From Candidatus Aminicenantes bacterium (lineage in GTDB: Bacteria > Acidobacteriota > Aminicenantia > Aminicenantales > UBA4085), in assembly GCA_963729855.1 (NCBI GenBank), contig CAVSPT010000002.1:10012-74011 (forward strand): a DNA stretch of 64,000 nucleotides, given 5' to 3'. Under the pieces are notes generated by a model. That model had not been told where the DNA came from. It searched no databases and saw only the letters and a list, made by a program, of their open reading frames with translations. A program made the position numbers and the translations under genes. Each line of letters opens with the position of its first letter. The stretch's first letter is position 1. This document shows positions 4,764 to 61,212 of this stretch, piece after piece.

Positions 4764-4841
4764 GGCCCAACCATCTTACCATGTTCCGGCGCATCCGCCG
4801 AGCCGGTTGGTCGCCCGGGCGATTTCTGTTAAAATTCGAAC

Positions 4842-5585
<744 letters not shown>

Positions 5586-5643
5586 AAGGTCGGCGAGCTC
5601 AGGGGGCGGTGGGCAAAACACGAGGAATTTCCCAGCGAGGTAT

Positions 5644-5880: not shown

Positions 5881-5931
5881 CAAAGCCGGCCGCCAACCGG
5901 CTAATGAGAAGTCAATTTGCGATACCTCTCC

Positions 5932-5960
5932 TTGACAATTGACGCTCCGGAACCTATATT
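5932..5960 (+). promoter_or_regulatory. Putative sigma70 promoter of dnaG-rpoD (TTGACA-17-TATATT)
   Basis: TTGACA 5932-5937, 17-nt spacer, TATATT 5955-5960, 28 nt upstream of dnaG ATG. Confidence 0.5.
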
Positions 5961-5988
5961 GTCTCAAACTTTGCCAGCCTAACCCTCA

Positions 5989-7734: not shown

Positions 7735-7752
7735 GAAGCGACGTATTCCCCC

Positions 7753-9408
<1,656 letters not shown>

Positions 9409-9485
9409 TTCCCCCGGATTTCCCCCCGCCGGCCGGCGCGAAACGGTTGTGCGCCGGAACGTTCTATGATATAAAGGGCCGATCC

Positions 9486-9557
9486 GGGCCTATAGCTCAG
9501 CGGTAGAGCTCCCGGCTCATAACCGGTCGGTCCCAGGTTCGAATCCTGGTAGGCCCA
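9486..9557 (+). tRNA. tRNA with CAU anticodon (elongator Met or Ile2/lysidine type)
   Basis: 72 nt cloverleaf: acceptor GGGCCTA/TAGGCCC, D-arm AGCTCAGCGGTAGAGC, anticodon loop CTCATAA, T-arm GGTTCGAATCC; G1-C72 paired so not initiator. Confidence 0.85.
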
Positions 9558-9577
9558 TCTGACCAGAGGGACACGTT

Positions 9578-10357
9578 GTGGATATCGCCTTCGAGAAACT
9601 GACCCGGCTTCAATATGTCGATTCCGAAATAGCCCGTCTCCAATCGCTCGTCGACGCCGTTCCGGCCCGTTTCGAAGCCATCGACCAACAGATCCAGTCC
9701 ACCACCGCGGCCGTCGTCCAGGCCAAGGAAAACCTGGCCGCCAACCAGAAGAAGCGCCGCGATCTGGAGGGCGAGGTCAAGGTCATCCGGGAAGGAATCG
9801 CCAAATACAAGCGCCAGCTGAACGACGTCAAGTCCAACAAGGAATACGACGCCATCAACAAGGAGATCTCCGAAACCCAGTCCCGCATCGACGGCATCGA
9901 GGAAGCCATCCTCAACGCGATGATCGCCGCCGACGACATCGAGAAGGAAATCAAAGCGGCCCAGAAGCGCCAGCTCGACGAAGAAGGGCACCTGAAAAAG
10001 GACAAAGAGGCGGTGGCCGCCGAAAAGGCGGACCTGGAGAAGCAGAAGGCCGCCGTCGAGGCCGAGCGGACTGCGCTCCTGCCGACGATCCCGGCCGACC
10101 AGCTCAGGCTCTACGAGCGCATCCACAGGAAGATGGGCGGGACGGCCATGTCCCGGATCAGCGATGATTTCTGCTCGATCTGCATGATGCGCGTCCGGCC
10201 GCAGCTGTTGGACGAGATCATCGCCGGGAAATCGATCATCACCTGCGAGGCCTGCGGCCGCATCCTCTATTGGGAGCCGCCCAAGGACGAGGATGGGCCG
10301 GTCCCGTCCCCTGTCGACGATCCGAACCGCAAAGACGATACGAACCCCGCGGACTGA
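9578..10357 (+). CDS. C4-type zinc-ribbon coiled-coil protein (COG1579/DUF164-like)
   Basis: 259 aa; long coiled-coil N-terminus, C-terminal CSIC...CEACGRILY zinc ribbon; likely GTG start. Confidence 0.75.
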
Positions 10358-10493
10358 AGCTCCGCCCAACCAAGCCGGACCATCGTTTTCCGCCCGGGGA
10401 GCTTCGGTCCCTGGAGCGGGGATTAATTCGTCGCAAATCGGGGCCCGGCATCCCCACGGAGGAGGCTGAAGCTCCGCCCAACCAAGCCGGACC
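10354..10493. repeat. Pair of perfect 28-bp direct repeats flanking an 84-bp hairpin-rich spacer
   Basis: ctgaagctccgcccaaccaagccggacc at 10354-10381 and 10466-10493; first copy overlaps the stop codon of the zinc-ribbon gene. Confidence 0.6.
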
Positions 10494-10505
10494 GCCGGGG
10501 CTCCC

Positions 10506-12287
10506 CTATTCCCTGTAGAGATCGTCGATAACCGCCTTGTACTTGGTTTCGACGATGGCCCGACGGACCTTCAGGGACGGCGTCATCTCGCCTTCAGCGA
10601 TCTCGAAATCGCGCTCCAAGAGAACGATCTTCTTGATCCGTTCGTAGGGGGCCAGATGCGGCGTGGCCCGGTCGATCTCGGACTTGACGAAGTTGACGAC
10701 CGGCTCGCGGCGGATCAGCTCGGCCCGATCGGCGAAGGGGATCTTGCAGAAACGGGCATATTCCTCGAGCTTCTCGAAGTTGGGCACGATGAGCGCGCTG
10801 ATGAAGCGGCGGCGGTCGCCGGTGACCACGGCGTTGGCGATGTAGGGACTGGTCTTGAGGATGTTCTCGATGGGCTGGGGTGCGACGTTCTTTCCGCCGG
10901 CGGTGACGATCAGATCCTTCTTGCGGTCGGTGATGGTCAGCAGGCCGTCGGCGTCCAGGACGCCGATGTCCCCGGTCTTGAACCAGCCGTCGACGAACAC
11001 TTCGGCGGTCTCGGCCGGCTTTTTGTAATAGCCCTTCATGACGTTGGGCCCGCGGACGAGGATCTCGCCGTCGGCGGCGATCCGGACCTCGACGCCGGGC
11101 ATGACCGGACCGACGCTGCCGAATTTGATCTTCTCGAAGGTATTGACGGCCACGCAAGGGGAGGTCTCGGTCAGCCCATAGCCTTCGAGGATGACCAGGC
11201 CGACGGCATAGAAGAATTCGGCAATGTCCCGGGACAGAGGGGCGCCGCCCGAAACGAAAAAGCGGACCTTGCCGCCGGTCTTTTCGATGATTTTGGAGAA
11301 GACCAGCTTGTGGGCCAGCCCGTGGCGGAAAGAGAGCCAACCGCCGGGCGTCCGGCCGGCCAGCTTCTTGGCCCCGTAGGCCTTGCCCACCTTGAGTCCC
11401 CAAAAGAAGACCTTTCTTCGCAGCGTGGAGCTGGCCAGGACGGTGTCCATGACCTTGGCGTAGATCTTCTCGAAGACGCGGGGCGCGCTGACCATGATCT
11501 GGGGCCGGACCTCGAGGAGGTTTTCGCCGACGGTCTCGATGCTTTCGGCGTAGGCGATGGAGCAGCCCTTGTAGATGTAGGTGAAGGTGACCATGCGTTC
11601 GAGGACGTGGGAGAGCGGCAGAAAGGACAGGACGGTGTCCTTGACCGAGAATTCGATGATGGAGGAAACGCTGATGATATTGCTGACGAAGTTGCCGTGG
11701 GTCAGGACGACGCCCTTGGGCAAGCCCGTGGTGCCCGAGGTGTAGATGATCGAGGCCTCATCCGCGGGCTGGACGGCCCGGGCCAGGCATTCGAAGAGAT
11801 CCGGTTGGGCGGCGTCCACGGTCCGGCCCTCGGCCAGGACTTCGTCCAAGGTCAGGACACCCTCGGCCGGGGGCTTGGCCTCCAGAATGACGAAATGCTC
11901 GACTTGGGGCAGCTCGGACCGGATGGCCTCGAGCTTCCGCCATTGATGGAGGCTGGAGACGACGACGATCCGGGCGTCGGAATCGTTGATCAAGTATTTG
12001 ATCTGCTCGGAGACGAGCGTCGTGTAAACCGGGACGGTGATGCCTCCCAGACAGAGGTTGGCGAAATCGGTCATGACCCATTCGGGCCGGTTTTCGGACA
12101 GGATGATGAGCTTGTCGCCCCGGCCCTGCCCGAGCGCCTGAAGGCCGAGGGCGTAATGACGGACGGATTTCCCGAACTCGGCGCTGGAAATGGGGGCGTA
12201 GCGGCCCCCTTTCTTGACCAGCATGAATTGAGGCTTGGGGTAGATGCTGAGGCTGTTGAGCAACAGGCCGGGAAGCGTCGTCACCAT
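10506..12287 (-). CDS. fadD: Long-chain fatty acid--CoA ligase (AMP-dependent synthetase)
   Basis: 593 aa; AMP-binding motif TSGTTGLPKGV, long-chain acyl-CoA synthetase architecture. Confidence 0.85.
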   Translation of the reverse strand: MVTTLPGLLLNSLSIYPKPQFMLVKKGGRYAPISSAEFGKSVRHYALGLQALGQGRGDKLIILSENRPEWVMTDFANLCLGGITVPVYTTLVSEQIKYLINDSDARIVVVSSLHQWRKLEAIRSELPQVEHFVILEAKPPAEGVLTLDEVLAEGRTVDAAQPDLFECLARAVQPADEASIIYTSGTTGLPKGVVLTHGNFVSNIISVSSIIEFSVKDTVLSFLPLSHVLERMVTFTYIYKGCSIAYAESIETVGENLLEVRPQIMVSAPRVFEKIYAKVMDTVLASSTLRRKVFFWGLKVGKAYGAKKLAGRTPGGWLSFRHGLAHKLVFSKIIEKTGGKVRFFVSGGAPLSRDIAEFFYAVGLVILEGYGLTETSPCVAVNTFEKIKFGSVGPVMPGVEVRIAADGEILVRGPNVMKGYYKKPAETAEVFVDGWFKTGDIGVLDADGLLTITDRKKDLIVTAGGKNVAPQPIENILKTSPYIANAVVTGDRRRFISALIVPNFEKLEEYARFCKIPFADRAELIRREPVVNFVKSEIDRATPHLAPYERIKKIVLLERDFEIAEGEMTPSLKVRRAIVETKYKAVIDDLYRE

Positions 12288-12439
12288 TCGCGTCTCCTAG
12301 GACGAAGCTGTAAAATTGGCCAAATTTTATGGGTTCAGGAAGCGCCTGTCAATGAATAACCGCCATCACGTTATAACGTGGTTTGGAAGAAACGGAGGCC
12401 AAGCTCAACGCATAGCGAAAAAACACTGCCGTTCTACGT

Positions 12440-12525
12440 TCGGAAGAGCGGGATCGGAGCGCCGGAGCGCGTTTTCCAGGCTGGGGAAAACGAGCGTGTT
12501 TCGCCCCGAATCTTCGAGCCCTCTA
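12440..12525. repeat. Partial copy of the 5644-5880 palindromic element
   Basis: ggggaaaacgagcgtgtttcgccccgaatcttcgagcc resembles gggggaaaatcagcgtgttttgacccgtgatgcccgaatcgcc at 5805-5847; 3' end abuts/overlaps gyrA stop. Confidence 0.35.
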
Positions 12526-15087
12526 CTCGCTCTCCTCCGCTTTGGCCACCATCACGACATGATCCTTCTCCTCCAGATTGATCAGCCGCACGCCCTGCGT
12601 CGCCCGGCCCGAAGCGCGGACCTGGGAGGTCTTGATGCGGATGACTTTTCCAGAAACGGTCACGACGAGGAGGTCGTCCTCCCCCACCCCGAGGATGCCC
12701 AGGGCGTTCCCGATCCGGGGCGTGACCTTTAGGTTCAGGATGCCCTTGCCGCCGCGGCGGGTCTTTCGATAAAGAGCGATTTCGGTCTTCTTGCCGGAGC
12801 CTTTCTCGCTCGCGGTGAAAATGTATTTGTCGGAATCGCCGATGGCCACCATGCCGATGACCTGGTCCTTCTTGCCCAGGGTCATGCCCCGGACTCCGGC
12901 GGCCGTGCGGCCCATGGACCGGACGTCCTTCTCGCTGAAGCGAATGGCCTTGCCCAGCTTGGTGGCGATGACGATGTCGCGCTTGCCGTCGGTCAGCCGG
13001 GTCCACATCAATTGGGCCTTGGGCTTGAGGCCGATGGCGATGATGCCGCCCTTGCGGATGTTCTGGAACTCGCTCAGGGCGGTCTTCTTGATCTGGCCAT
13101 CCGTGGTCATCATGACGATGAAGCGGTCCTCGCTGAAGTCCTTGACCGCCACGACCGAGGTGACCCGCTCGTCGGGCTGGAACTCGATGAGGTTGGCGAT
13201 GGCCTTGCCCCGGCCGGCGATGCCGACGTCGGGGATCTCCAGGGCCTTCAGCCAGTAGACCCGGCCGATGTTGGTGAAGAACATGAGGTAGGAGTGGGTC
13301 GAGCAGACAGACAGGTTCTCGACCACGTCCTCGGCCTTCATGCTGATGCCCTTGCGGCCCTTGCCGCCGCGGATCTGGAAGTGGTAGGACGACAGCGAGG
13401 TCCGCTTGACGTAGCCCGACTGGGTGAAGAGCACGACGACGTCCTCTTCCTTGATGAGGTCCTCGGGGCGGATGTCGCCGACGACCTCGTCGCGCAGCTC
13501 CGTGCGGCGGGGGTCGCCGAACGAGGCTTTGACCTCGCGCAGCTCCTGGCCGATGATGTCCATGACCATCTTGTCGCTGGACAGGATCTTGCGCAGCTTG
13601 GCGATGAGGGCCTTCACGTCCTGGTACTCCTGGACGATCTTCTCCCGCTCCAGGTTGGTCAGCCGCTGCAGCTGCATCTCCAGGATGGCCTGGGCCTGGA
13701 GATGGGACAGCTTGAACTTCTCCATCAGCCCGGCCCGGGCCTCATCGGTGTTCTTGGAGGCCCGGATGAGCTTGATGATGGCGTCCAGGTGGTCGAGGGC
13801 GATGGTCAGGCCCTCCAGGATGTGGGCCCGGGCCTCGGCCTTCTTGAGGTCGTGCCGGGTCCGCCGCCGGATGACGTCCTGGCGGTGGGCGATGAAGTAC
13901 TTGATGATGTCGATCAAGCCGAGGACCTTGGGCTGCTTGTCCACGATGGCCAGCATGATGATGCCGAAGGAGGTCTGCAGCTGGGTGTGCTTGAAGAGGT
14001 TGTTCAAGACGACCTCGGGCAGCTCGCCCCGCTTGATTTCGATCACGATCCGGATGCCCTCCCGGTCGGACTCGTCGCGGATGTCGGCGATGCCCTCGAT
14101 CTTCTTCTGGTTGACCAGCTCGGCGATGTTCTCCAGCAGACGCGATTTGTTAACGGCGTAGGGGATCTCGGTGATGACGATCCGCTCCCGTTCGCCCTTG
14201 TCGCCCCGCTCGATCATCGACTTGGCCCGGATCTGGATGCTCCCGCGGCCGTCGCGGTAGGCGTCCCGGATGCCCTGCTGGTTGAAAATGTAGCCGCCCG
14301 TCGGGAAATCCGGGCCGGGTACGAACTCCATGATCTTGTCCAGCGAGGCGTTGGGGTGCTCAATCAGGTACGACACCGCGTCGCAGACCTCGGCCAGGTT
14401 GTGGGGCGGGATGTTGGTGGCCATGCCTACGGCGATGCCCGAGCTGCCGTTGACCAGCAGGTTGGGGTACCGGGCCGGCAGGACCTCCGGCATGGTCAGG
14501 CTCTCGTCGTAGTTCGGGATGAAATTGACCGTGTCCTTCTCGATGTCGGCCAGCATCTCCGAGGCCAGTTTGCTCATGCGCACTTCGGTGTAGCGCATGG
14601 CCGCCGGGGGGTCGCCGTCGATACTCCCGAAGTTGCCCTGGCCGTCGACCAGAACGGCCCGCATGCTGAACTCCTGGGCCATCCGGACGATCGTGTCGTA
14701 CGCCGCCTGGTCGCCGTGGGGATGGTACTTGCCGATAACGTCGCCGACGATGCGGGCCGATTTCTTGTACGGCTTGTTATAAGTCGTCCCCGTCTCGTAC
14801 ATGGAGTACAGGCAGCGCCGGTGGACAGGCTTGAGGCCGTCCTTGATGTCGGGGATGGCCCGGCCGATGATGACGGACATGGCATAGTCGAGGTAGGAGC
14901 GCTTCATCTCCTCCTCGAGGCTTACGTCGGAGAGGCTGGCCGCGGTCGGAGACAGCGGCTGCTGGGTCTTGGGGGCCTTCTCCTTGGCCGCCGGAGGGGC
15001 CTCCGGAGGAGCGGTCGGATCGGGCGCCTGGTCTTCGGGGGGGATCGGTTTGGGAGCGCGGGGTTTGGGGGTTTTCTTCTTGGCCAT
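12523..15087 (-). CDS. gyrA: DNA gyrase subunit A
   Basis: 854 aa; active-site Tyr region AAMRYTE, QRDR-like motif, C-terminal beta-pinwheel repeats. Confidence 0.97.
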
Positions 15088-15090
15088 GTT

Positions 15091-17484
<2,394 letters not shown>

Positions 17485-48395: not shown

Positions 48396-48898
48396 TCAAT
48401 AATAGCGGTCCATGGCCCGGTACTGGATGGCCTCGCTCAGATGGGCCGGACCAATCCTCTCCTCCCCCGCCAGGTCCGCGATCGTCCGGGCCACCTTCAA
48501 CGCGCGGTCGTAAGCCCGGGCGCTGAAACCGAGTTTGGTCACCGCCGCCTCCAACAACTTCTCCTCTTCGGCGCCGATGGGGCAGAACTTCTTCACCTCG
48601 CCCGGGCCCATCTGGGCGTTGGCGAAGATCCCCCGTCCTTTATAGCGTTCGACCTGGAGGGCCCGGGCCTCGCTCACCCGCTCGCGGACCGCCTCCGAAC
48701 CCTCTCCCTCCTGCTTGGAGACGATCTCCCGGAATTTGACCGCGGGGACCTCGGCCTGGATGTCGATTCGGTCAAGAAGGGGGCCCGAGATTTTGGAATA
48801 ATAGCGTCCTCTCTGGTGGTCGGTGCACTCGACGTCCCGTCCGCCCAGGCCTCTCAGGACGTCGGCGCAGGGTTGCGTTGCCGTACTGTCATTTAATC
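48396..48898 (-). pseudogene. comM: comM/yifB (Mg-chelatase-like AAA+ protein) 3' fragment, truncated by insertion
   Basis: Continuous minus-strand frame ...ATQPCADVLRGLGGRDVECTDHQRGRYYSKISGPLLDRIDIQAEVPAVKFREIVSKQ...KVARTIADLAGEERIGPAHLSEAIQYRAMDRYY* = YifB C-terminal domain; homology stops at ~48898, the N-terminal ~330 codons are absent. Confidence 0.75.
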
Positions 48899-49318
48899 TT
48901 GAAGGGAAATAAGCCGGTTCACAGGGAGAAATACCCTGATATTTGCAAAACGTGGGGCGACTGGATTCGAGCTCGGAGAATCGATTTGAAGCTCACAAAA
49001 GCCCAACTTTCCCTCAACCTTAATGTTTCGGACATTACGATATATCTTTGGGAACATAATCGAGTCCAGCCGTCTGTAACCCAAATTCCGAAGATTATTG
49101 AGTTCTTGGGACGAGATCCCTTCGAAGCAAATTCCGAAAATTTGGGGGACAAACTCAGATCATACCGGCGGCTGAACGGACTTTCTCAAAAGAAATTTGC
49201 TAAGCAACTGGGAGTCGATTTTACGACTCTGGCCGGATGGGAGAGAGGGGAACACTGGCCGTCGAAAAAGATGCTTGATAAAATCAAATCGGTCTTTTTA
49301 TCCTCCATGCCGAGCTGA
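48878..49318 (+). CDS. Tandem-HTH XRE-family transcriptional regulator (copy 1)
   Basis: 146 aa; two helix-turn-helix units (LKLTKAQLSLNLNVSDITIYLWEHNRVQPS and NGLSQKKFAKQLGVDFTTLAGWERGEHWPS); putative TTG start lies antisense inside the comM fragment. Confidence 0.6.
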   Translation: MPYCHLILKGNKPVHREKYPDICKTWGDWIRARRIDLKLTKAQLSLNLNVSDITIYLWEHNRVQPSVTQIPKIIEFLGRDPFEANSENLGDKLRSYRRLNGLSQKKFAKQLGVDFTTLAGWERGEHWPSKKMLDKIKSVFLSSMPS

Positions 49319-49428
49319 CCTGACCCCCTTCCCCAAATGCCCCTCTCGTCTTTTCCCCGAGTGTCTTGAAATAAAATCGATAAGCCGCCGCCGCCGCTCT
49401 TCCTCTCTACGGCTTGCCCGGGAGTTGA
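49171..49428. repeat. Direct repeat A (~260 bp, 3' end of the HTH gene plus ~110 bp downstream)
   Basis: >90% identical to 51289-51553. Confidence 0.7.
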
Positions 49429-49670
49429 TTGTCGTCTGAAGCGCGAGAGGATGGCTTTTGCTAAAGGTAATAGCATGGACTAGTTCGAGATCGTCGTTCT
49501 TGAAGCATTTGGAGAAGGCGTTTTTCTGCGTTCATTGCAAAAATGGCTTTAGGGCTCACAATGGAATAAAATATTAAAGACAAGCAGGTCTTCAGTATAC
49601 CTTCCAAAGGTTTCTCGACTGTCCAAACAATGGGCGCGGCTTCATTTCCTTAAAAGCATGACTTAAGACG

Positions 49671-51149
49671 ATGAAAATACTCTTGATTTATCCAAAGTAT
49701 CCAGACACATTCTGGAGTTTTAAGCATGCTTTGAAATTCATCTCAAAAAAAGCATCTTTCCCCCCTTTGGGCTTATTAACCGTTGCTTCCATGCTCCCCA
49801 AAGAATGGGAGAGAAAGCTTATTGACATGAACGTCTCGGTTTTAACCGAGGAAGATCTCGAATGGGCGGACTATGTCTTTATCAGCGCTATGGTCATTCA
49901 GAAAACCTCAGCCAGGGAAGTGATTAGAAGATGCAAGAAATTGGGAATCAAAATTGTTGCCGGCGGCCCTCTTTTTACCACCGGATATGAAGAATTTGAG
50001 GGCATCGATCATCTTGTTCTTAATGAAGCTGAGAATACGCTTCCGTCTTTTCTGGATGATTTAAAGAATGGATGCGCCCAATATATGTATACCTCTAAAG
50101 AGTGGCCAGATTTAGAAGGGACTCCCTGTCCACAATGGGACCTCATCAACATGAAAAAATACGCTTCCATGTGCATCCAATATTCCAGAGGCTGTCCCTT
50201 TAATTGTGAATTTTGTGACATTATTGTTCTCAATGGTCATAAACCACGGACAAAGAGTAAAGACCAGATTTTGGGAGAACTGGAAGTTTTATACGAACAA
50301 GGCTGGAGAGGCGGGGTGTTCTTTGTCGATGACAATTTTATAGGTAATACGAAAAGACTGAAAACGGAAATTCTTCCCGCTCTCATCGATTGGATGAAAG
50401 AGAAAAAATATCCTTTTTATTTTTTCACAGAAGCATCTATCAATCTATCTGATGATAAGAAGCTAATGCAATTAATGGTCAAGGCCGGATTTGAAAGGGT
50501 TTTTATCGGAATTGAAACGCCGAATGAAGATAGCCTCACAGAATGCAATAAATACCTGAATAAGAATCGTAACCTGATAGCTTGCGTAAAAAATATTCAA
50601 AACACCGGCCTAGAAGTTCAGGGGGGATTCATCGTAGGTTTTGATAATGATCCTCTTTCTATCTTTGAAAGACAGATAAGTTTTATTCAAAAGAGCGGAA
50701 TAGTCACGGCTATGGTTGGGTTGTTGAATGCACCGCCGGGGACAAAGCTTTTTCAGCGTCTAAAAAAAGAAGAAAGATTATTGGATGATCCCTCTGGTGA
50801 TAACACCGACTTTTCACTCAACTTCATCCCCAAAATGAATGCTGACGCACTCATGACTGGGTATAAGAAAATCCTCAATACGATTTATTCCCCTAGAGAC
50901 TATTATAAACGCGTGATAACATTTTTTAAGGAATATAAACCAATACGGATAAGAAAAAAGATCCATTTTAAATTTTGTTATATCAACGCATTCTTCAAAT
51001 CTATCTGGTTTTTGGGGATAAAAGGAAAAGAAAGATTGTACTATTGGAAACTTTTTTCCTGGACATTAGTAAGGCATCCCCGCTTTTTTCACTTAGCAAT
51101 CACACTCGCAATTTATGGTTTTCATTTTCAAAAAACTATGGCAGCTTAA
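49671..51149 (+). CDS. B12-binding radical SAM protein with C-terminal DUF4070-like tail
   Basis: 492 aa; N-terminal cobalamin-binding Rossmann-like region, CPFNCEFCD radical-SAM cluster motif, long C-terminal extension; low-GC codon usage. Confidence 0.85.
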   Translation: MKILLIYPKYPDTFWSFKHALKFISKKASFPPLGLLTVASMLPKEWERKLIDMNVSVLTEEDLEWADYVFISAMVIQKTSAREVIRRCKKLGIKIVAGGPLFTTGYEEFEGIDHLVLNEAENTLPSFLDDLKNGCAQYMYTSKEWPDLEGTPCPQWDLINMKKYASMCIQYSRGCPFNCEFCDIIVLNGHKPRTKSKDQILGELEVLYEQGWRGGVFFVDDNFIGNTKRLKTEILPALIDWMKEKKYPFYFFTEASINLSDDKKLMQLMVKAGFERVFIGIETPNEDSLTECNKYLNKNRNLIACVKNIQNTGLEVQGGFIVGFDNDPLSIFERQISFIQKSGIVTAMVGLLNAPPGTKLFQRLKKEERLLDDPSGDNTDFSLNFIPKMNADALMTGYKKILNTIYSPRDYYKRVITFFKEYKPIRIRKKIHFKFCYINAFFKSIWFLGIKGKERLYYWKLFSWTLVRHPRFFHLAITLAIYGFHFQKTMAA

Positions 51150-51288
51150 TTATTTTTGAATGAGTCGCTAATTCGCTCCGCTGTCTTTTCTTATTGCTGG
51201 GAAGCAGGAGTCCAAGAGCTTTGGGTTCTGTTCGCCTCATACTCATTTAAATTTCCTTTTTCCTTCAATGCCAAACGTTAATAAACCA

Positions 51289-51436
51289 GCTGAAGGGGCT
51301 TTCTCAAAAGAAATTCGCTGAGCAACTGGGAGTCGATTTTACGACTCTGGCCGGATGGGAGAGAGGGGAATACTGGCCGACGAAAAAGATGCTTGATAAA
51401 ATCAAATCGGTCTTTTTATCCTCCATGCCGAACTGA
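51289..51436 (+). pseudogene. 3' fragment (last ~48 codons) of a third XRE-HTH gene copy
   Basis: Begins abruptly at 51289; mosaic similarity (5' end like copy 2 at 60630, remainder like copy 1 at 49171); no start codon. Confidence 0.5.
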
Positions 51437-51553
51437 CCTGCCCCCCTTCCCCAAATATCCTTCTCGTCTTTTCCCCGAGTGTCTTGAAATAAAATCGATA
51501 AGCCGCCGGCGCCGCTCTTCCTCTCTACGACTTGCCCGGGATGGTGATCGTCT
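51289..51553. repeat. Direct repeat B (partner of 49171-49428)
   Basis: Direct comparison of the two sequences. Confidence 0.7.
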
Positions 51554-51656
51554 CTAAAACAAGAAAATGGCTGTGGCGATGACCGGATAGCCGAAGATCT
51601 CGTTCCACTGCGAAAAGCTACGGTTGGAAGTCAGGATCAAGGGCGCTCTAGATCAG

Positions 51657-52127
51657 CTATATTTTACGATGGATGTATTTTGTGTAATCCTTGATGACTG
51701 GGTGATATTCTTTCTTCATAAGAGGCGAAGAAATCATGAAATCCGCGGTCGAGCGATTGCAGGCGATGGGAATATTATAGACCACCGCGATTCGAAGGAG
51801 CGCTTTAACATCTACATCATGAGGCTGCGGTTCCATGGGGTCCCAAAAGAAAATGACGAAATCGATTCGACCCTCGGCGATCATTCCCCCGAGCTGCTGA
51901 TCCCCTCCGAGCGGACCCGACTTCAATTTGTTGATTTCAAAAGGCTCTTTTTTAATATGATCGCGCTCGAATTTTTTACTGATAATTTCCTCTACCAAGC
52001 GGCCCGTGGTCCCCGTGCAGACCAATTTATGTCGAACCAAGGTTCGATAGTTGAACTCGACCCATTCTCCGAGATCGGGTTTTCGATTATCGTGCGCCAC
52101 AAGAGCGATCGTCTTTATCCTTTCCAT
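51657..52127 (-). CDS. mgsA: Methylglyoxal synthase
   Basis: 156 aa; IALVAHD, CTGTTG, SGPLGGDQQLGGMIAEGRIDFVIFFWDP, PHDVDVKALLR nearly identical motifs to E. coli MgsA. Confidence 0.9.
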   Translation of the reverse strand: MERIKTIALVAHDNRKPDLGEWVEFNYRTLVRHKLVCTGTTGRLVEEIISKKFERDHIKKEPFEINKLKSGPLGGDQQLGGMIAEGRIDFVIFFWDPMEPQPHDVDVKALLRIAVVYNIPIACNRSTADFMISSPLMKKEYHPVIKDYTKYIHRKI

Positions 52128-53311: not shown

Positions 53312-53494
53312 TCAAATAATTCTAATCTTGCAATACCATCCAAATAGCGCTTCCTTAATATTGATCGAACCTCGATTCTGGTCTTCCTCCATTATTTTTG
53401 CATTCGGGGCATCGGAAAAGGCTTCTTGATGAAGTTTCATGGAGGCAATAAAGCTGCGGATTGCTATTGCCTCTTCCCTTTCCCGCCTCTCCAA
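53312..53494 (-). CDS. 60-aa helical hypothetical protein
   Basis: ORF-track only; same strand and upstream of micro-ORF; competing 67-aa ORF on + strand (53439-53642). Confidence 0.2.
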   Translation of the reverse strand: MERREREEAIAIRSFIASMKLHQEAFSDAPNAKIMEEDQNRGSINIKEALFGWYCKIRII

Positions 53495-53942
53495 CTTGCA
53501 CTTGCTTTTTGTTGCTAAAACGGATGCCCTAACGATTGCTGGCTATATGAAGGCCTTGCTCGTCCTTAAAGAGATGCAGAAATCAGGGGAGATTGAAATT
53601 GTGGCGTTCCAAGGATTGAAGTCATGGATTCGTTCTTTGTGATAAAATATTTCTAGCTCTCGTTAGTCAGCTGGGGAGAGTCCTCCCATCAATCCCCCTT
53701 TTTGCCAACAGCCGGCAATATGTGTGCTCATAATTTGTTCGATTTCCCGAAAATTCACACAGGAACCTTATGATCGGAGCCCGTGGAACTTTGCCCTTCG
53801 AGTTTATTAGATCCTGAACGGAAAGATTAAAGGCAAACTGATAGCAGAAGAACTTATTTTTTATAAAACCGATCAATAATGTAATATGCGACTTTTTCCT
53901 TGTCAGGATGCGGGGCTTTCAAATCTTCCATCAATTTCGAGA

Positions 53943-53981: not shown

Positions 53982-55259
53982 TTGAGGGAAAAATATTTCG
54001 CTTTAATTTTTCTGGTTCTTTTCCCTGTTTTTTCTCCCGCCGCCATCCTGAAAATCACCGTTGACGCGGCCATCCATCCGGTGACATCCGAGTATATCCG
54101 CGATTCGATCGACCGCGCCGATAAAGAGAACGCCGGCCTTCTTATCATGACGCTCAACACGCCCGGCGGCCTGGATTCGTCGATGCGGGAGATCATCGAG
54201 AAGATTCTTTCGGCCAAAACGCCCATCGCCGCTTTCGTCAGCCCGAGCGGAGGCCGCTCCGCATCCGCCGGATTTTTCATCGGCATCGCCTGCGACCTTT
54301 TCATTATGGCGCCCGGAACCAACACCGGAGCCGCGCATCCCGTCGGCGTTTCGATTACGGGACAGTCCATGGACAAAACCATGGAGGATAAAGTCACGCA
54401 CGACGCGGCATCTTACATCAAGACGTTGGCTGAAAAACGCGGCCGCAACGTCCAGATGGCCGAGGACGCCGTCAGAAAAAGCCTGTCCTATACGGAAAAG
54501 GAGGCGCTCCAGGGAGGTCTCATCGATTTCATCGCGAAGAATGAGCAGGAAATCATCGACGCCTTCGATCAAAAGACCATCGGACGTTTCCATGGCGACA
54601 CCGTCGTCCTCCGTCTCAAACAAGAGCCGGTGATCAGCGTGGACATGTCCGCCCGGCAGAAATTTCTTCTGACGATTTCCAACCCCAACCTTGCCTACAT
54701 CCTGCTCATGATCGGCCTGCTCGGGTTGTATTTTGAATTCGCCAATCCCGGCGCCGTTCTCCCCGGGATCCTGGGCGGCATCTCGCTTCTCCTGGCCATT
54801 TTTTCGTTCCAAATCCTGCCTATCAATTACGTCGGCCTGATTCTCATTCTTTTGGCTATGGCCCTGTTTATTCTGGAGGTCAAGGTGCACAGCTTCGGCG
54901 CCTTTTCAATCGGTGGCATCATCGCCCTGGTCATCGGCTCGATGATGCTCATCAAGGCCCCGATTCCCGAGCTCCGGCCGAGCCTCCGGATCATCATCCC
55001 CGTAGCGCTTGGCATCTCCCTGATCCTTATCTTCCTCGTCTATCTCGTCATCCGGGCCCAGGCCCGCCGGTCGCTCACCGGAAAGGAAGGAATGGTCGGG
55101 GAAATCGGGACCGCCCGGACCGACCTCACCTCCGAGGGGAAGGTTTTCGTCCACGGCGAACTCTGGGAGGCGGAGGCGGTCGAGCCCATTAGTGCGGGCG
55201 AAAAGGTGCGGATCGTCGAGGTCCTTAAGACCCTAAAAATCAAGGTTAAAAAAGCTTGA
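53982..55259 (+). CDS. NfeD-family membrane-bound ClpP-class serine protease
   Basis: 425 aa; signal peptide, ClpP-like domain with GGLDSS...GAAHPVG, C-terminal TM bundle and OB-fold. Confidence 0.8.
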
Positions 55260-55305
55260 CCTATACGATAATGGGAGGCCTTACGGTCTCGGCAAGGAGA
55301 AAAAA

Positions 55306-56067
55306 ATGGAAAGTTACCCGGTCATCGTCGTCGCCCTCATCGTCCTTTATATCCTGGGTTCGATCAAGATCCTGAGAGAATACGAGCGCGGAGTCATTTT
55401 TCGGCTCGGCCGCGTCCTGCCTAAGCCCAAAGGGCCCGGCATCATCTTGGTCTTCTTCCCGATCGACCGCATGGTGAGAATCAGCCTGCGACTCATCACG
55501 ATGGCCATCCCCCCCCAGGATGTCATCACAAAGGACAATGTCACGGTGAAGGTCAACGCCGTTCTCTACTTCAGGGTCATCGACCCGCTCAAATCCGTGA
55601 TTGACGTGCAGGATTATCTCAACGCCACCTCCCAGTTGGCACAGACGACCCTGCGCAGCGTCCTCGGCCAGGTTCCGCTCGACGACCTCCTCTCGGAGCG
55701 GGATAAATTGAACACCCGCATCCAGGCCATCATCGAGCAGCACACCGACCCCTGGGGCATCAAAGTCCAGCTCGTGGAGATGAAACAGGTGGACCTTCCG
55801 GAGAACATGGTCCGGGCCATCGCCAAACAAGCCGAGGCTGAACGGGAACGCCGGGCCAAGGTCATTCACGCCGAAGGCGAATTCCAGGCCGCCGATAAAC
55901 TCCTCCAGGCCGCCAACATCATTTCTACAAATCCGCAGGCTCTCCAGCTCCGATTCCTAGGCACCTTGACGGAGATTGCCGCGGAAAAAAATTCGACGAT
56001 CATCTTTCCTCTCCCCATGGAGCTCTTGAAAGCCTTCACCTATGAAAAAAAGCAGGAGGACAAATAG
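55306..56067 (+). CDS. SPFH/band-7 (stomatin/slipin-like) protein
   Basis: 253 aa; N-terminal TM, SPFH core, classic nfeD-stomatin operon partner; AAGGAG RBS. Confidence 0.85.
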
Positions 56068-56713
56068 GGCCCAGGACAAAAGAGATGCCAGATCGCGAAT
56101 TTAAATTCTCGAGCACCTAGTTCGTCGTCGTCTTCATTGTCATCCTGGTCCAGAGTGTTTTCATCTTCTTGATCGAATTTTTGGTCGTCAAAAAAACAGG
56201 TTGATCTTTCGGCAGGTGTTTGTCGTCAGGCGGTTTCGGACTCGCGAGCTGACTTCTTAAGCTACAGGTTCCTGGTCTCATAATATTTTAACTGACGCCG
56301 TTTGGCAAGGCTTCAAGAATCGCCATCCGGTTCAACTCCCTCCTCATCTTCATGGTCTCCTGGCGGACATTTTCCCACTTTTTCAAGATCACGCGGTCCC
56401 GTCCGTAATACTTGTCTGGACGATAAATTAAGCTGCCGCTTTTGCGCGAGCCCAGAGGTACGGCTATGGGAAGCCGTCCTAACGATCCGCTTTGTAAAGC
56501 GGTCTGTAGGCGGCCCAGCTAGAGAAATGAAATGCCAAGTCTATCGCTGCTAGGATTGCGGCAGGAATTTCGATGAGGTTGAAGCCGAAGGAAAAAAATA
56601 ATCCTAAAGTCGGGCCCACGTTCTCCTAATCGTTTTTTCTTCCCTTAGCCAAGAAAAAAGCCGACGTTACGCATATGATTATCCCCAAATATATCTGAGC
56701 AAAAAGATATTTA

Positions 56714-56865
56714 GCTCCTAGAATTGCCCCTAAGATTAGGGCAAGTCCTAGGAGCCTGTCGGAAAACCCCCTATTTCCGGGGTTTTCCCTTAAATGGCAT
56801 GAAGAAAATAAACGATTTACGCAACGAATAACCCGAAATTATGAGGTAATCCGACAGGCTCCTAG
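56714..56865. repeat. Nested palindromes: imperfect ~42-bp palindrome (56714-56755) and perfect 16-bp inverted repeats (56748-56763 / 56850-56865)
   Basis: gctcctagaattgcccctaagattagggcaagtcctaggagc; ctaggagcctgtcgga ... tccgacaggctcctag enclosing hairpin aaaaccccc..ggggtttt. Confidence 0.6.
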
Positions 56866-57209
56866 AAAGCAGAAAAAAACGATTACATATCTTTGCGCGT
56901 TTTTCATTATTCCCCCCTCTTTAGAATTTCCCGGTTTAGCTTTAGGTAATCTTCGGCCCCGTGGCTATTCGGCGCATAGACGAAAATATCTTGTCCGTAG
57001 CTCGGGGCTTCCGCTAATGCGGCCAGCGTGACCTTGCGTATGCATTCCCAAATCATTGTTGGAGCACCCCGAGGCCGAGCGACCATAGCAGTATAACAAT
57101 AATCGATTGGAACACAAGAATTTAAGGCCTTTGAAGACCCTTGCCGTCACCGGCCGGGCCCGCTATACACCTTCAACCCGCCCAAACTGTCTAACCGTTA
57201 GGGGACACC

Positions 57210-58832
57210 TCACAATCCGTTGGTGAAGCTTCTGAGCGTCTTCGACCGGCTTGGATGCTTAAGCTGGCGCAGAGCCTTGGCCTCGATCTGACGAATGCGC
57301 TCTCGGGTGAGCTTGAACTGCTGGCCAACTTCCTCCAGGGTATGATCGTTCCCGCCGCCCAGGCCGAAGCGCATCTTGAGGATCTTCGCCTCGCGCTCGG
57401 TCAAGCTTCTTAGAGCCTCCTCGATTTTTTCGCGCAGATTGATATGGATAACGGTGTCAGGAGGCGAGAGCATGACCTTGTCTTCGATGAAGTCGCCGAG
57501 GTGGCTGTCCCCCTCCTCGCCGATGGGCGTTTCGATGGAGAGAGGCTGCTTAACGGTCTTGATGATTTTGCGAACCTTGCTCGCCGGCAGGTCCATTTTC
57601 TTGGCAATTTCCTCGCTGGTCGGCTCGCGGCCGATCTCCTGAACGAGCTGGCGGCTGACCCGGTTGAGCTTGTTAATGATATCGATCATATGGACCGGGA
57701 TGCGGATCGTGCGGGCCTGATCGGCGATGGCCCGGGTGATGGCCTGGCGGATCCACCATGTGGCGTAAGTCCCGAACTTAAATCCACGGCGGTATTCGAA
57801 CTTGTCGACAGCCTTCATGAGGCCCATGTTGCCCTCCTGGATGAGGTCCAGGAACTGCAAGCCGCGGCTGGAATATTTCTTGGCGATGGAGACAACCAGC
57901 CGGAGGTTGGCGGCGACGAGTTCTTTTTTGCCCTGGTCGCTGATCTTCTTCCCGGTAGTGATGGAGCGGATGATCTTTCGTAGATTGGGCAAATCAAGCC
58001 CGATGTCCGTTTGTATGGTCCGGATTTGCTTCTGCAGTTCCTGGAGCTTTTCGGACAGGTCTTCACCGTCCTTCTTTTTCCGGGTCTTGGCCAGGAGCAG
58101 CTCGATTTCCTCTTTTTTCTCGTCCAGTTGGTTGACGACGTGGAGCCAGCGGCGGAGGGTTTCAATGATCCTTTCCGTCTGGATTGTTCGAAATTTGAGA
58201 TGCCGAATGGATCTCGATATCTCGACGATGACGCGGCTTCGGGCGAGAGCCTTCTTCCGGTTTTTAGGGATCTTGTCCAACTTCCGGCTCAGGTTGTGGA
58301 TCTTTCGGACCTTGGCCAGGATTTGGTTTTTCTTTTCCTCGAGTTTGCCCTCGGCGATGGCGTCTTCGGAAATGTCAAACATCTCCTGGATGATCATCGG
58401 ATTGGCTTCAATTCGTTCTTCAAGGGACAGGACTTCGTTGAGGACCAGACGGGTCTTGCTGAGGGCCTTGATGATGGTTTTTTCGCCACGCTCGATTTCG
58501 CGGGCGATGGAGATCTCGCCTTCCCGGGTCAGCAGGCTGATATTGCCCATCTCCTGGAAGTAGAGCTTGACCGGGTCGGTCGTCCGCTCCAGCTCCTGAG
58601 TTGTCAGCAGCTCGTTCTTACGCTGGCGGGGTGCAACTTTGCGCTGTTTCTGGTCGAGGATTTTGATCCCGTAGCCATCGATCGAAGAGAGGAAATCGTC
58701 GAAATTCCCCTCCGTTTCGCGCGCGTCCTGGAAGGCCTTGTCGATATCATCAAAAAGAAGATAGCCCTGCTTGCGGCCCTTGGAGATGAGCTCCGATATC
58801 CCGTTTTTGGGAAGTTTAGTGTCGGCCGGCAC
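57210..58832 (-). CDS. rpoD: Second full-length primary-type sigma70 (RpoD paralog/xenolog)
   Basis: 540 aa colinear with the 7753-9408 RpoD (~85% aa identity; regions 2.4 and 4.2 essentially identical) but nucleotide sequence diverged and lower GC. Confidence 0.9.
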
Positions 58833-58937: not shown

Positions 58938-60000
58938 CTAGAGCTGGAGTCCATCGCCTATTGGCTTGGGCGATGGGGACCTCTCCGCTACAGAGGTCAG
59001 CCTCGGATGATCGATGATCCGATCCACGATGGCATACCCCGTGATGAAAGCGACGACCTTCCTCCTCCTCCTGCACTGGGGGCATCCCATCGGGATGATC
59101 CAGTAACGGTCGCGATCGCTGGGGGCGTTTCCTGACCTGGAATGACCGGTATCTGAAACCAAAATCCTGGGGAGACGCGCGGCCGCTTCAGACTGATCCG
59201 AGTCGGACATGAGTTCCGCGATAAGCTCCTTGACCGTCACGATCTTATTGATCCGGTAGGCGTTATGGCCGCAGAAGATCAGACCGTTATCGACATCCCC
59301 CATAAAGGAATTGACGAGGGCCAGGGCGATGCAATATCTGGCCTCGGCGACCTTACAGGCAGTCAGACAGCGGTAATCACACTTGATCTGGAGCTTGTCC
59401 ACGACCTCGAGCTTTTTCAGGAACTTGTCCCGGATAGCCCGCCCGGGCATTCCGACGGGACTCTTGATAATGCTGTTCCAGGGAGAATCCCAAGTGTCCC
59501 CCCGCCAAAGGACCTTCCAAAATCAGGGCGTCGGCCGTCCGGGCGAAGCGTTTTTCCCACGATCTCAGGATCAATTCGGCGACCCGTCCAGAGCTAACAA
59601 TGGGAACGAGGTTGACCGATGGGTCCTCGACAAGGCCGGGCAGTTTGGCTGGCAGACCGGCCCCATACACGATCATTTTGATGCCTTCCCGAACCGCGGT
59701 CAGGATCAGGTCGTCCACGTTGCTGAGCACGCCCATAAAATTGACGGCCAGGTTGCCATCCGTCGAGCTTTTGGCTTTGCGGATCTCCGATTCCAGGGCT
59801 TCCCGGGATGCTTTTTCGTATTCGTTCTTGGAGGCTTCGGGGTCGCCCAGGCCGATGCTGGATATGGTGCCAACGGCCCCTTCCCGGGCGACGGCCGCGG
59901 CCAGGGAAGAGAGCGAGACCCGCACGCCCATCCCGCCCTGGACGATGGGGATGTCGGCGGTGATGCTGCCGATTTTAAGCTTGGAGATTTTCATCTCCGC
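58938..60000 (-). pseudogene. Nitronate monooxygenase / FabK-like (NMO family) gene with internal frameshift
   Basis: N-terminal IPIVQGGMGVRVS...EGPLAGGHLG in ORF 59377-60285, C-terminal NMO residues continue in a different frame (ORF 58938-59450); frames overlap 59377-59450. Confidence 0.65.
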
Positions 60001-60300
60001 CTCCAGGAGTTTCTCCCCATCCGGACCGATGGGGCAGAACGCCTTCACTTCGCACGGCCCCATCTGGGCATTGGCGTAGATCCCGCGGCCTTGGAACCGC
60101 TCAATCTGTCGCCGCCGGGCCGCCTCGACTCTCGACCGGATCGAGGCCGAGCCCTCCCCTTCCTGTTTAGAGACGATCTCCCGGAACGGCACGCTGGGGA
60201 CTTGCCTGGATATCGATGCGGTCGAGCAAAGGGCCCGAGATTTTCGAGTAATAGCGGGCTCTCTGATGATCCGTGCACTCGTCATCGCGTCCGCCCGCCC
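59995..60300 (-). pseudogene. comM: Second internal comM/yifB fragment (~300 bp), frameshifted, fused upstream of the NMO gene
   Basis: Nucleotide similarity to 48556-48900; encodes ..CTDHQRARYYSKISGPLLDRIDIQ.. then 2-nt deletion relative to copy 1. Confidence 0.65.
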
Positions 60301-60330
60301 CCGCCCGCATCACGTTGGCGCAGGGTTGCG

Positions 60331-60780
60331 TTGCCCTTTTGCCATTTAACCTTAAAGGGAAAAAGACCGGTCCACAGAGAGAAATACCCTGATATTTGTC
60401 GGACGTGGGGCGACTGGATTCGGGCTCGCAGGATCGATTTGAAGCTCACCAAAGCCCAACTTTCCCTCAAGCTTAATGTTTCGGACATTACGATATATCT
60501 CTGGGAGAAGAATAAAGTCCAGCCGTCCTTGGCCCAGATTCCAAAGATTATCGAATTCCTGGGCCGCGATCCGTTTGAAGCTGAAGCCGGAAGCCTGGCT
60601 GAAAAACTCAAAAACTATCGCCGGGTGCAGGGGCTTTCTCAAAAGAAATTCGCTGAGCAACTGAAGGTCGATTTTACAACCTTGGCCGGGTGGGAGAGAG
60701 GGATACATGAACCGTCAAAAAGACTTCTAAACAAGCTAATCGCCGCAATAAGCTTTTCTAAACGTAAGGAAGCTATTTGA
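60331..60780 (+). CDS. Tandem-HTH XRE-family transcriptional regulator (copy 2)
   Basis: 149 aa, ~80% identical to 48878-49318 copy; same TTG-start position relative to the comM fragment. Confidence 0.6.
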   Translation: MPFCHLTLKGKRPVHREKYPDICRTWGDWIRARRIDLKLTKAQLSLKLNVSDITIYLWEKNKVQPSLAQIPKIIEFLGRDPFEAEAGSLAEKLKNYRRVQGLSQKKFAEQLKVDFTTLAGWERGIHEPSKRLLNKLIAAISFSKRKEAI

Positions 60781-60885: not shown

Positions 60886-61212
60886 ATGGGTGAGAGCAAA
60901 AAAGAGGTCTTGCGGGTCCAGTTTGACCCCAGTGTGAAGCTGGAATTCCAGGGCGCAAAAATAACCAGTGATGGCGGTCTGCTGCTTTTCAGAGAGATGG
61001 ATGAAGTGATGGGATTGACGGTTTTGGCCGAGAAAATTCTTCAGGATCCGCGCACGGGCCAGAATACCTAGCACACGATGACGGCATTGCTTCGCCAAGC
61101 GGTATATGGACGGTTGGCCGGATACGAGGATACCAATGACGCCGAGCGGCTGCGAGTCGACCCGGCCCTGCAATGGGAGAATTCAATCTGTGATGGAGGA
61201 ATCAGGTGGCTT
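60886..61212 (+). pseudogene. IS1380-family transposase N-terminal remnant
   Basis: KITSDGGLLLFREMDEVMGLT ... (TAG at 61069) ... ALLRQAVYGRLAGYEDTNDAERLRVDPALQ = conserved N-terminal motifs of IS1380 transposases; only ~108 codons, in-frame stop, remainder deleted. Confidence 0.7.

Follow-up and report, generated by a model that had tools for sequence, protein, structure and literature searches.

A repeat-bracketed, AT-rich radical-SAM gene in a plastic region of an Aminicenantes genome

A 64,000-nucleotide stretch of DNA from a Candidatus Aminicenantes bacterium (contig CAVSPT010000002.1; hereafter the window) carries a gene for a predicted class B, or cobalamin-dependent, radical S-adenosylmethionine (rSAM) enzyme that lies between two long direct repeats. 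This arrangement raises the question of whether the gene is a cassette inserted or duplicated between recombination sites, as the initial annotation of this DNA proposed, or whether it came to be bracketed by repeats in some other way. We find that the rSAM gene is no recent arrival in the Aminicenantes lineage and that the repeat-rich region around it is likewise old. The repeats, each about 260 bp long, look like recombination scars composed of the ends of a multi-copy regulator gene and of a dispersed repeat, not like the ends of a mobile element. The significance of the locus is modest. It illustrates how a variable region in an uncultured phylum is shaped by a multi-copy family of regulator genes together with a short dispersed repeat, and it shows that what stands out as a repeat-bounded cassette of aberrant GC content need not have been imported recently but can be of long standing.

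Composite repeats built from multi-copy sequences

In a repeat search, positions 49171–49423 and 51289–51541 form an ungapped, same-orientation alignment of 253 nt that is 95% identical, and pairwise alignment prolongs the match to approximately 49436 and 51553 with a single 2-nt indel. The two copies are spaced 2118 bp apart. Identity above 90% had been claimed for these repeats and is borne out, as is their composition. Each consists of the last ~148 bp of a gene for an XRE-family regulator with two helix-turn-helix (HTH) stretches, followed by ~118 bp of downstream DNA that takes in most of a ~100-bp dispersed repeat, here called REP. The left copy closes the intact gene XRE-1. The right copy closes XRE′ (51289–51436, codons ~99–146), a dead, 5′-truncated pseudogene fragment that lacks a start codon, the first HTH and the 5′ two-thirds of the gene. 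Because the only other long repeats in the window are a pair of rpoD-type genes and a second XRE/comM′ module (211–300 nt at 73–83% identity), the repeat that brackets the rSAM gene is beyond what chance would produce.

Table 1. Features of the rSAM region, with coordinates in the window, and gene orders around rSAM homologues in relatives (percentages beside locus numbers are identities to the window rSAM).
Feature	Position	Strand	Basis and remarks
comM′-1, ComM/YifB C-terminus remnant (residues ~335–506), divergent partner of XRE-1	48399..48908	-	Pfam Mg_chelatase and Mg_chelatase_C
XRE-1, intact 146-aa regulator with two HTH_3 stretches	48878..49318	+	ORF and Pfam
Left direct-repeat copy	49171..49436	+	Repeat search and alignment; XRE codons ~98–146 plus ~118 bp downstream
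REP, left copy, ~100 bp, non-palindromic, core CTTGCCCGGGA	49358..49457	+	nhmmer E=7e-26
rSAM leader, non-coding, conserved, ~215 nt	49458..49670	+	Kept in L002, L004, L166, L168
Class B (cobalamin-dependent) rSAM gene with C-terminal DUF4070, 492 aa	49671..51149	+	ORF and Pfam; GC 38.5%, GC3 0.41
139-bp rSAM 3′ flank	51150..51288	+	Common to L002/L003 (98%) and L168 (86%)
Right direct-repeat copy	51289..51553	+	Repeat search and alignment; starts with the XRE′ fragment
REP, right copy	51476..51574	+	nhmmer E=8e-24; right half of MgsA-flank type, as in L002
Methylglyoxal synthase gene (mgsA), right-hand neighbour	51657..52127	-	NCBIfam NF003559, 208.7 bits against a cut-off of 84; Pfam MGS
comM′-3, second ComM remnant, same upstream breakpoint	59977..60337	-	Frameshifted, C-terminally truncated, run into split nitronate monooxygenase gene
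XRE-3, second full-length paralogue	60331..60780	+	79% aa identity to XRE-1 over 136 residues; insertion sequence remnant next to it
Locus L002/L003 (97% aa)			AsnA, PALP, orf80, REP core, leader, rSAM, 139-bp flank, XRE′, ~170 bp, REP core, mgsA
Locus L004 (89%)			NfeD, Band7, other genes, 236-aa ORF, REP, leader, rSAM, REP, nitroreductase, kinase
Locus L166 (91%, another sample)			XRE 3′ end, REP, REP, leader, rSAM, REP
Locus L168 (88%)			rSAM, 139-bp flank, unrelated HTH gene, 540-aa rpoD (89% nucleotide identity to window rpoD-2)
Loci L169–L173 (87%)			Era, Metallophos, rSAM, KhpA; in L170 and L169 also a sigma-70 gene; L170 continues to RRM, RpoZ
Locus L005 (86%)			Insertion sequence transposases either side of rSAM, then RRM, sigma-70
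Locus L009 (79%, Aminicenantes of 39% GC)			NUDIX, rSAM, M20, intact comM
aa, amino acid; ORF, open reading frame; GC3, GC content at third codon positions.

Loci of relatives are identified by L-numbers; among the matches listed, the genome and metagenome scans gave mostly relatives at 60–70% identity and added few close contexts. L002 and L003 contain the junction between the 139-bp flank and XRE′ (51288/51289) in a form nucleotide-identical to that of the window, and this junction is therefore older than the split of their lineage from that of the window. Sequence identity to L002 is absent to the left of 49417, which lies in the REP core CTTGCCCGGGA, amounts to 97–100% over 49417–51336, collapses over 51337–51505 within the right repeat, and then resumes as an 80–97% mosaic through REP and mgsA. 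The mgsA gene is itself a mosaic relative to L002 (85–97% identity, with parts at 85–87%), which implies that recombination is common at this locus. The right repeat copy may be mosaic as well, its first ~36 nt resembling L002 and the remainder resembling XRE-1, although L166 suggests that the distal part in L002 is the altered one.

The coding sequence alone is common to all of the tabulated relatives; the leader is found in five and the 139-bp flank, in full or in part, in four. L005, L086 and L169–L173 match the window in the coding sequence only, apart from the distal 55 nt of the flank, which are 78% identical to a stretch between rSAM and KhpA in L169–L173. The XRE part of the repeat is missing from the rSAM flanks in L004, L005, L168–L173 and L086. 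The left flank is XRE-1, orf80/PALP or the 236-aa ORF, depending on the locus, and mgsA on the right is common to L002 only. In L176–L178, mgsA relatives with 94% amino acid identity occur without an rSAM gene, and their similarity to the window ends at 51566, where the right repeat has its outer edge. L168 has an HTH gene downstream of its rSAM, which was considered as an ancestor of XRE′ and rejected because it belongs to an unrelated HTH family.

Each of the two components of the repeats is a member of a multi-copy family. Searches with a profile of aligned REP copies find two copies in the window, both adjoining the rSAM gene, two in L002, three in L166 and nine within the 18.7 kb searched of L004. 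Same-orientation REPs bracket the rSAM gene in four contexts (the window, L002/L003, L004 and L166), and the outer flanks differ each time. On both strands, the predicted folding of the copies does not exceed that of shuffled sequence (z between −0.6 and +1.0), and thus REP is neither attC-like nor a classical palindromic REP. An identity with integron attC sites was also dismissed on the absence of a significant fold, and no GTTRRRY core occurs in the aligned copies. In L004, the REPs are spread in an array-like fashion over 13 kb (4075–17045), where they divide units of one or two genes. A second family of short dispersed repeats is represented at 53487–53607 of the window and at 8944–9063 and 17035–17144 of L004 (74–76% identity), with one of the L004 copies lying just downstream of the rSAM gene.

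The regulator gene is equally repetitive. XRE-1 has 382 homologues of ~137–150 amino acids at 62–77% identity, some of them present several times per contig and some assigned by name to Aminicenantes or Acidobacteriota. It is also part of a larger module, in which it stands head-to-head with a remnant of comM; the paralogues, several to a genome, always adjoin such a remnant. This comM′-XRE module occurs twice in the window (48399–49318 and 59977–60780) and twice, 5.6 kb apart, in L175 (856–1775 and 6528–7438). As judged by tblastn, the comM breakpoint, near residue 335, is identical in all four copies, which indicates that comM′-XRE is a multiplied module and not a one-off truncation. A tblastn comparison with the intact ComM of L009 shows that comM′-1 covers residues 337–506; it is 75% identical at the amino acid level to the 153-aa copies of L175, relative to which its start codon has apparently been lost (ATG to CTG). 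The modules could be scars of elements that integrated into comM and accreted there in tandem; no integrase was found at them.

The repeat search gave no target-site duplication at the boundaries of the rSAM unit, and the inverted repeats in the 47–54 kb interval are weak ones of 21–22 nt at chance level, none of them terminal. The unit contains no transposase, the insertion sequence (IS) remnant at 60886–61170 being 9.7 kb away. Neither a recombinase nor an IntI integron integrase is present among the ORFs annotated in 44–64 kb, the part of the window and contig that was scanned, no integrase is present in the fetched rSAM and XRE loci, and no recombinase lies beside the rSAM gene in any of them except for the unrelated IS transposases of L005.

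Age of the rSAM gene

The AT-richness of the rSAM gene, which had been judged by eye, is confirmed by measurement: its GC content is 38.5%, compared with 60.6% for the whole window, and its GC3 is 0.41, compared with 0.74–0.78 for genes on its right and 0.79–0.89 for real genes on its left. A compositional contrast this extreme is what would be expected if a foreign, low-GC rSAM cassette had recently been acquired and inserted between existing recombination sites. Such a history would also fit the varied contexts among relatives, including that of L005 with its IS transposases on both sides, as well as the 97–100% identity between the window and L002 across the rSAM unit, to be compared with 85–87% in part of mgsA. 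Moreover, among the matches listed, the family extends to more than 10 phyla at 60–81% identity.

However, the initial annotation had itself named vertical inheritance at a similarly low GC content as an observation that would speak against insertion, and this is what we find. Every Aminicenantes relative examined carries the gene at a GC content of 0.37–0.39, whatever that of the flanks (0.33–0.56 in relatives; 0.41–0.68 across the window). In other phyla, the GC content of the gene follows that of the host. Synonymous divergence (dS) places the relatives at 0.2–0.5 from the window, and the values for the rSAM gene are not below those for its neighbours: between the window and L004 they are 0.32 for rSAM, 0.25 for Band7 and 0.16 for the NfeD C-terminus, and between the window and L168 they are 0.30 for rSAM and 0.27 for rpoD-2. 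The two repeat copies have already diverged by ~5%, and the XRE′ junction predates the split of the window and L002 lineages. Phage collections and the IMG/VR viral collection hold no relatives of rSAM or XRE, and the homologues found on plasmids are just 36–42% identical. Thus, the constant low GC content, the match between the dS values of the gene and those of linked genes, and the divergence of the repeats together establish the rSAM gene as an old resident, and a recent horizontal acquisition is improbable.

Despite dS values of 0.2–0.3, the GC3 of the gene is 0.40 in all lineages, beside 0.74–0.80 for linked genes (53982–58832), and there is no sign of amelioration. The right-hand 15 kb of the window is also lower in GC1 and GC2 (first and second codon positions) than the left part.

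Origin of the repeat-bracketed arrangement

If the gene is old, how did it come to lie between the repeats? We lean, with moderate confidence, toward homologous recombination of the RecA type among dispersed XRE and REP copies, acting in a plastic region where an AT-rich, stand-alone rSAM gene has long been resident. We favour this explanation because XRE, comM′-XRE and REP are all multi-copy, and because homology to L002 switches inside the REP core and inside XRE′. In addition, the independently assembled L166 shows the same succession of XRE 3′ end, REP, leader and rSAM, and no recombinase, target-site duplication or terminal inverted repeats occur in or near the unit.

The ancestral state would have been similar to that of L002/L003, with the order REP-leader-rSAM-139 bp-XRE′-REP-mgsA. 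A RecA-type crossover between dispersed XRE/REP copies would then have placed an intact comM′-XRE-REP module on the left, through either a single crossover (a Campbell-like insertion) or an unequal exchange. The outcome would be the order XRE(full)-REP-rSAM-XRE′-REP, after which the two copies would have diverged by ~5%, possibly at a pace slowed by gene conversion. With such repeats in place, the 2.1-kb segment could be deleted, duplicated or exchanged through ordinary homologous recombination, with no need for a dedicated enzyme.

Several observations weigh against homologous recombination as the full explanation. Eight of the nine REPs in L004 have the same orientation, although they lie between genes of either orientation, and homologous recombination does not account for this bias. 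Nor does it account for the nearly identical left boundary of three contexts, homology to both L002 and L004 starting within the left REP at 49393–49417. Likewise unexplained is a coincidence of breakpoints: an XRE 5′ fragment in L174 (110–406, codons 1 to ~100) stops within ~7 nt of the point at which the XRE′ 3′ fragments begin (51289 in the window, 5733 in L002), which hints at a recombination hotspot at XRE codon ~100. No empty site with the order XRE-REP-mgsA was found: the mgsA relatives L176–L181 lack the rSAM gene but have unrelated flanks. Finally, the evidence that all four junctions lie on one molecule comes from a single metagenome assembly of short reads.

Some of these same observations would be expected of a non-autonomous, site-specific cassette resembling a cis-mobilizable element (CIME) or an integron cassette, with REP (core CTTGCCCGGGA), XRE codon ~100 or both serving as attachment (att) sites for a recombinase encoded elsewhere. 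A 2.1-kb circle composed of an XRE 3′ end, REP, leader, rSAM and the 139-bp flank would have integrated into the XRE gene, such that the 3′ end carried by the circle restored the gene and the original 3′ end was displaced downstream. Such a reaction is expected to leave the target gene intact on the left and a 3′ end orphaned on the right, which is exactly what is observed. Within ~7 nt, the L174 5′ fragment breaks at the same point as the XRE′ 3′ fragments of the window and L002/L003, REPs of one orientation bracket the rSAM gene in four contexts and divide units of one or two genes in L004, and the homology boundaries within the REP core are sharp. L002 even holds the same components circularly permuted relative to the flanking repeats. 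Nonetheless, no recombinase is annotated among the 44–64 kb ORFs or beside the fetched rSAM genes, bar the unrelated transposases of L005, and REP has no hairpin or inverted-repeat architecture. The ends of the unit are not fixed among relatives, several of which share only the coding sequence, and the rSAM gene co-diverges with its neighbours. The codon-100 site depends on two independent breakpoint events, whose agreement has a ~3% probability of arising by chance. On balance, we consider a site-specific cassette unlikely.

It is more doubtful still that REP and the codon-100 hotspot are the attachment sites of an undescribed, trans-acting cassette-exchange system in Aminicenantes. If such a system existed, the REP array of L004 would be its array of cassettes, with the rSAM unit among the cargoes, and the repeated comM′-XRE modules would be scars of tandem accretion at comM. 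A site-specific mechanism, if real, would represent a new kind of cassette system.

The initial proposal of a module inserted or duplicated between repeated recombination sites thus holds in part. The gene is bracketed by repeats, same-orientation REPs flank it in four contexts, and homology to L002 has sharp edges. The proposal does not hold with respect to the history of the gene, which is an old resident by composition and dS co-divergence, or with respect to defined cassette ends, given that many relatives lack the XRE part and that no recombinase or target-site duplication was found. A tandem segmental duplication, in which a segment consisting of the XRE 3′ end, REP, leader and rSAM was duplicated in tandem and the second rSAM was then lost to leave an extra XRE′-REP, is the least probable of the histories considered. 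Direct repeats of one orientation at a spacing of 2118 bp in a rearrangement-prone region are compatible with it. However, it requires two events plus a precise deletion that joins REP to the mgsA flank, it leaves unexplained why L002 has XRE′ on the right and no XRE on the left, and the right copy, L002-like over its first ~36 nt and XRE-1-like beyond, suggests a mosaic.

Alternatively, because the repeats are multi-copy, an assembler might have joined two loci or strains through shared XRE/REP sequence, in which case the repeats would never flank the gene on a real chromosome. The window does show strong compositional steps, with 62–68% GC up to 46 kb, ~57% at 46–48.7 kb, 41–50% at 49–54 kb and ~55% beyond, and it contains two full-length rpoD-type sigma-70 genes (7753–9408 on the plus strand and 57210–58832 on the minus strand, ~81% identical at the nucleotide level). 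Furthermore, the Logan contig L001 (run ERR11594402), which is 100% identical to 49361–51323, ends inside both repeats, as is expected at a branching assembly graph, and so verifies the inner junctions only. Conversely, each of the four junctions has independent support. The XRE-1 ORF runs intact over the left outer boundary. A single contig of L166, from another sample and an independent, ~8% diverged assembly, joins the XRE 3′ end to REP, leader and rSAM, and it starts within 11 nt of the repeat start. L002/L003 contain rSAM, XRE′, REP and mgsA, and L001 supports the inner junctions. A 5% difference between the copies is sufficient for large-k assemblers to separate them, and GC3 differs only moderately between the right-hand genes (0.74–0.78) and the left-hand ones (0.79–0.89). 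The rpoD genes are genuine paralogues: rpoD-1 occupies the canonical position after dnaG and before tRNA-Met, and rpoD-2 lies in the variable region and has an orthologue beside the rSAM gene in L168. The pair was accordingly rejected as a sign of chimeric assembly, and we regard an artefact as improbable.

Parallels to the arrangement exist among described systems, and repeat-mediated rearrangement is itself a known kind of process. CIMEs are known for tandem accretion at att sites, which can comprise a target gene's 3′ end (PMC5704250). Like them, the rSAM unit is a short segment without recombination genes, its direct repeats hold a gene 3′ end, and an intact gene lies on one side and an orphan on the other. 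It differs in that no integrase-bearing relative is present in the fetched rSAM/XRE loci, the repeats are composite and 5% diverged, and the unit boundaries are not conserved. Neisseria minimal mobile elements are defined as whole-gene cassettes that are swapped between conserved flanks by homologous recombination (PMC3082526). The likeness lies in a single-gene unit that lacks mobility genes and in a proposed exchange via flanking homology; the flanks here, in contrast, are dispersed XRE/REP sequences with variable outer flanks instead of two conserved single-copy genes, and no other cassette was found to occupy this site.

The order of intact gene, cargo and 5′-truncated copy of the gene's own 3′ end likewise resembles that at rhs and cdiA loci. 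There, orphan C-terminal modules downstream are 3′ gene ends that were displaced by recombination. The XRE gene, however, encodes a small regulator where those loci encode a polymorphic toxin, its cargo codes for an enzyme instead of an immunity protein, and there is a single orphan. REP/BIME repeats are short, intergenic, multi-copy and lineage-specific, and REP of the window shares these properties and coincides with rearrangement boundaries. It is distinguished by its ~100-bp length, its non-palindromic sequence and the strong orientation bias in L004.

A stand-alone class B enzyme and its neighbourhood

The predicted domain structure of the 492-aa product was confirmed, with all three Pfam domains scoring above their cut-offs: B12-binding at residues 30–127 (PF02310, 48.4 bits against 32.1), Radical_SAM at 170–332 (PF04055, 58.7 bits against 29.5) and DUF4070 at 358–489. 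The CxxxCxxC motif (C175, C179 and C182) is invariant across 29 homologues. A Radical_SAM core with this motif and an N-terminal, Rossmann-like B12-binding domain are the features of the class B superfamily, to which the enzyme is assigned on this basis. All 21 matches to named class B subfamilies in NCBIfam (PhpK, HpnJ, HpnR, BchE, TIGR04072, ApyD and others) are far below cut-off, the highest scores being 81.8 bits for the PhpK type (cut-off 600), 69.9 for TIGR04072 (360) and 68.2 for HpnJ (577.6). Matches to structures in the PDB are weak (9ccb, AprD4 and OxsB; E values of 5e-7 to 5e-5). The gene therefore represents an uncharacterised subfamily of a known kind of enzyme. An AlphaFold model, derived from a shallow alignment of sequences with at least 76% identity, has a mean predicted local distance difference test score of 50 and was set aside as too poor for locating cofactor sites.

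Characterised class B rSAM enzymes are mostly methylases. By analogy with these, the enzyme presumably generates a 5′-deoxyadenosyl radical, and most likely methylates an unactivated carbon or phosphorus atom. The role as a C- or P-methylase, or as a maturase of ribosomally synthesized and post-translationally modified peptides (RiPPs), that was put forward earlier amounts to family-level guesswork, as no NCBIfam subfamily reaches its cut-off. In the literature consulted, DUF4070 is mentioned in connection with hopanoid methylases and in one survey of domains of unknown function, with HpnP being the DUF4070 enzyme discussed (PMC10697835). The resemblance of the window protein to such enzymes lies in the B12-binding/Radical_SAM/DUF4070 layout and the invariant CxxxCxxC motif, and its closest NCBIfam models, all below cut-off, are those of PhpK-family P-methyltransferases, TIGR04072 lipid-biosynthesis B12/rSAM proteins, HpnJ and BchE. 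The genes for HpnP/HpnJ, PhpK and BchE are located in pathway clusters. The window rSAM gene, in contrast, stands alone without conserved pathway neighbours.

The isolation of the gene is consistent across the family, in agreement with the initial report of no obvious substrate gene nearby. Over 84 rSAM loci there is no conserved neighbour gene, and the small ORFs upstream of rSAM in L169–L173 are pieces of other genes rather than precursor peptides. A 41-aa ORF at 51156–51281 of the window is broken by a stop codon in L002. A RiPP maturase cluster was rejected on these grounds. Homologues at 77–97% identity number in the thousands, those with names being Aminicenantes. The more distant ones, at 60–81% identity in the matches listed, come from Aminicenantes, Dehalococcoidia, Ignavibacteria, Bacteroidota, Atribacterota, Patescibacteria, one Woesearchaeota metagenome-assembled genome and other groups. 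The gene travels and persists alone, with no conserved partner in any phylum, and its substrate is therefore likely to be a common cellular molecule. A stand-alone class B subfamily this unusually conserved without partner genes is of interest in its own right, and the 67%-identical homologue in the cultured Anaerobacterium chartisolvens DSM 27016 makes its function experimentally approachable.

Other associations were considered. PADLOC returned a weak and generic match for the rSAM protein and matches to HTH models for XRE, and membership in a defence system was rejected. PHROG gave no match for rSAM or comM′. Plasmid carriage was rejected as well, since the distant plasmid homologues lie in uninformative contexts (an ars operon; RRM and desaturase genes). 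One of them, 42% identical and located on Chroococcidiopsis plasmid pB (L183), is flanked by RRM genes, a desaturase gene and a DEAD-box helicase gene. In Aminicenantes, Ignavibacteria and Chloroflexi, rSAM homologues repeatedly have RRM and sigma-70 genes within ~6 kb (L005, L007, L043, L050, L055 (RRM) and L170), which may reflect a stress- or RNA-related regulon. Sigma-70 genes within ~3 kb of rSAM comprise the 540-aa rpoD of L168, a 488–489-aa paralogue in L005 and L170, and a fragment in L169.

The leader upstream of the rSAM gene (~49455–49670) is conserved about as well as the coding sequence in five relatives. RNAalifold, applied to these few sequences, predicts a hairpin over the start codon in which five pairs show compensatory changes, and the leader may be a cis-regulatory RNA. 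It has no Rfam match. Between 48 and 53 kb, the Rfam search at E ≤ 1 gave nothing but a sub-threshold CRISPR-DR match within coding sequence, and one tRNA-Met is the sole match over the whole window. A scan for promoters and terminators yielded counts not above those in shuffled sequence.

The NfeD and Band7 proteins of L004 are 93–94% identical in amino acid sequence to those of the window. Near the second comM′-XRE module, a nitronate monooxygenase gene (58938–60285, minus strand) is split into two ORFs, the N-terminal part being fused in frame to comM′-3. Directly after XRE-3, the IS remnant matches positions 1–88 of the 435-position DDE_Tnp_1_4 model and is interrupted by a stop codon. Genes are sparse between Band7 and rpoD-2, where there is a 40-nt inverted repeat, 80% complementary with arms 38 nt apart, together with a ParA C-terminal fragment (56748–56865 and 56913–57017).

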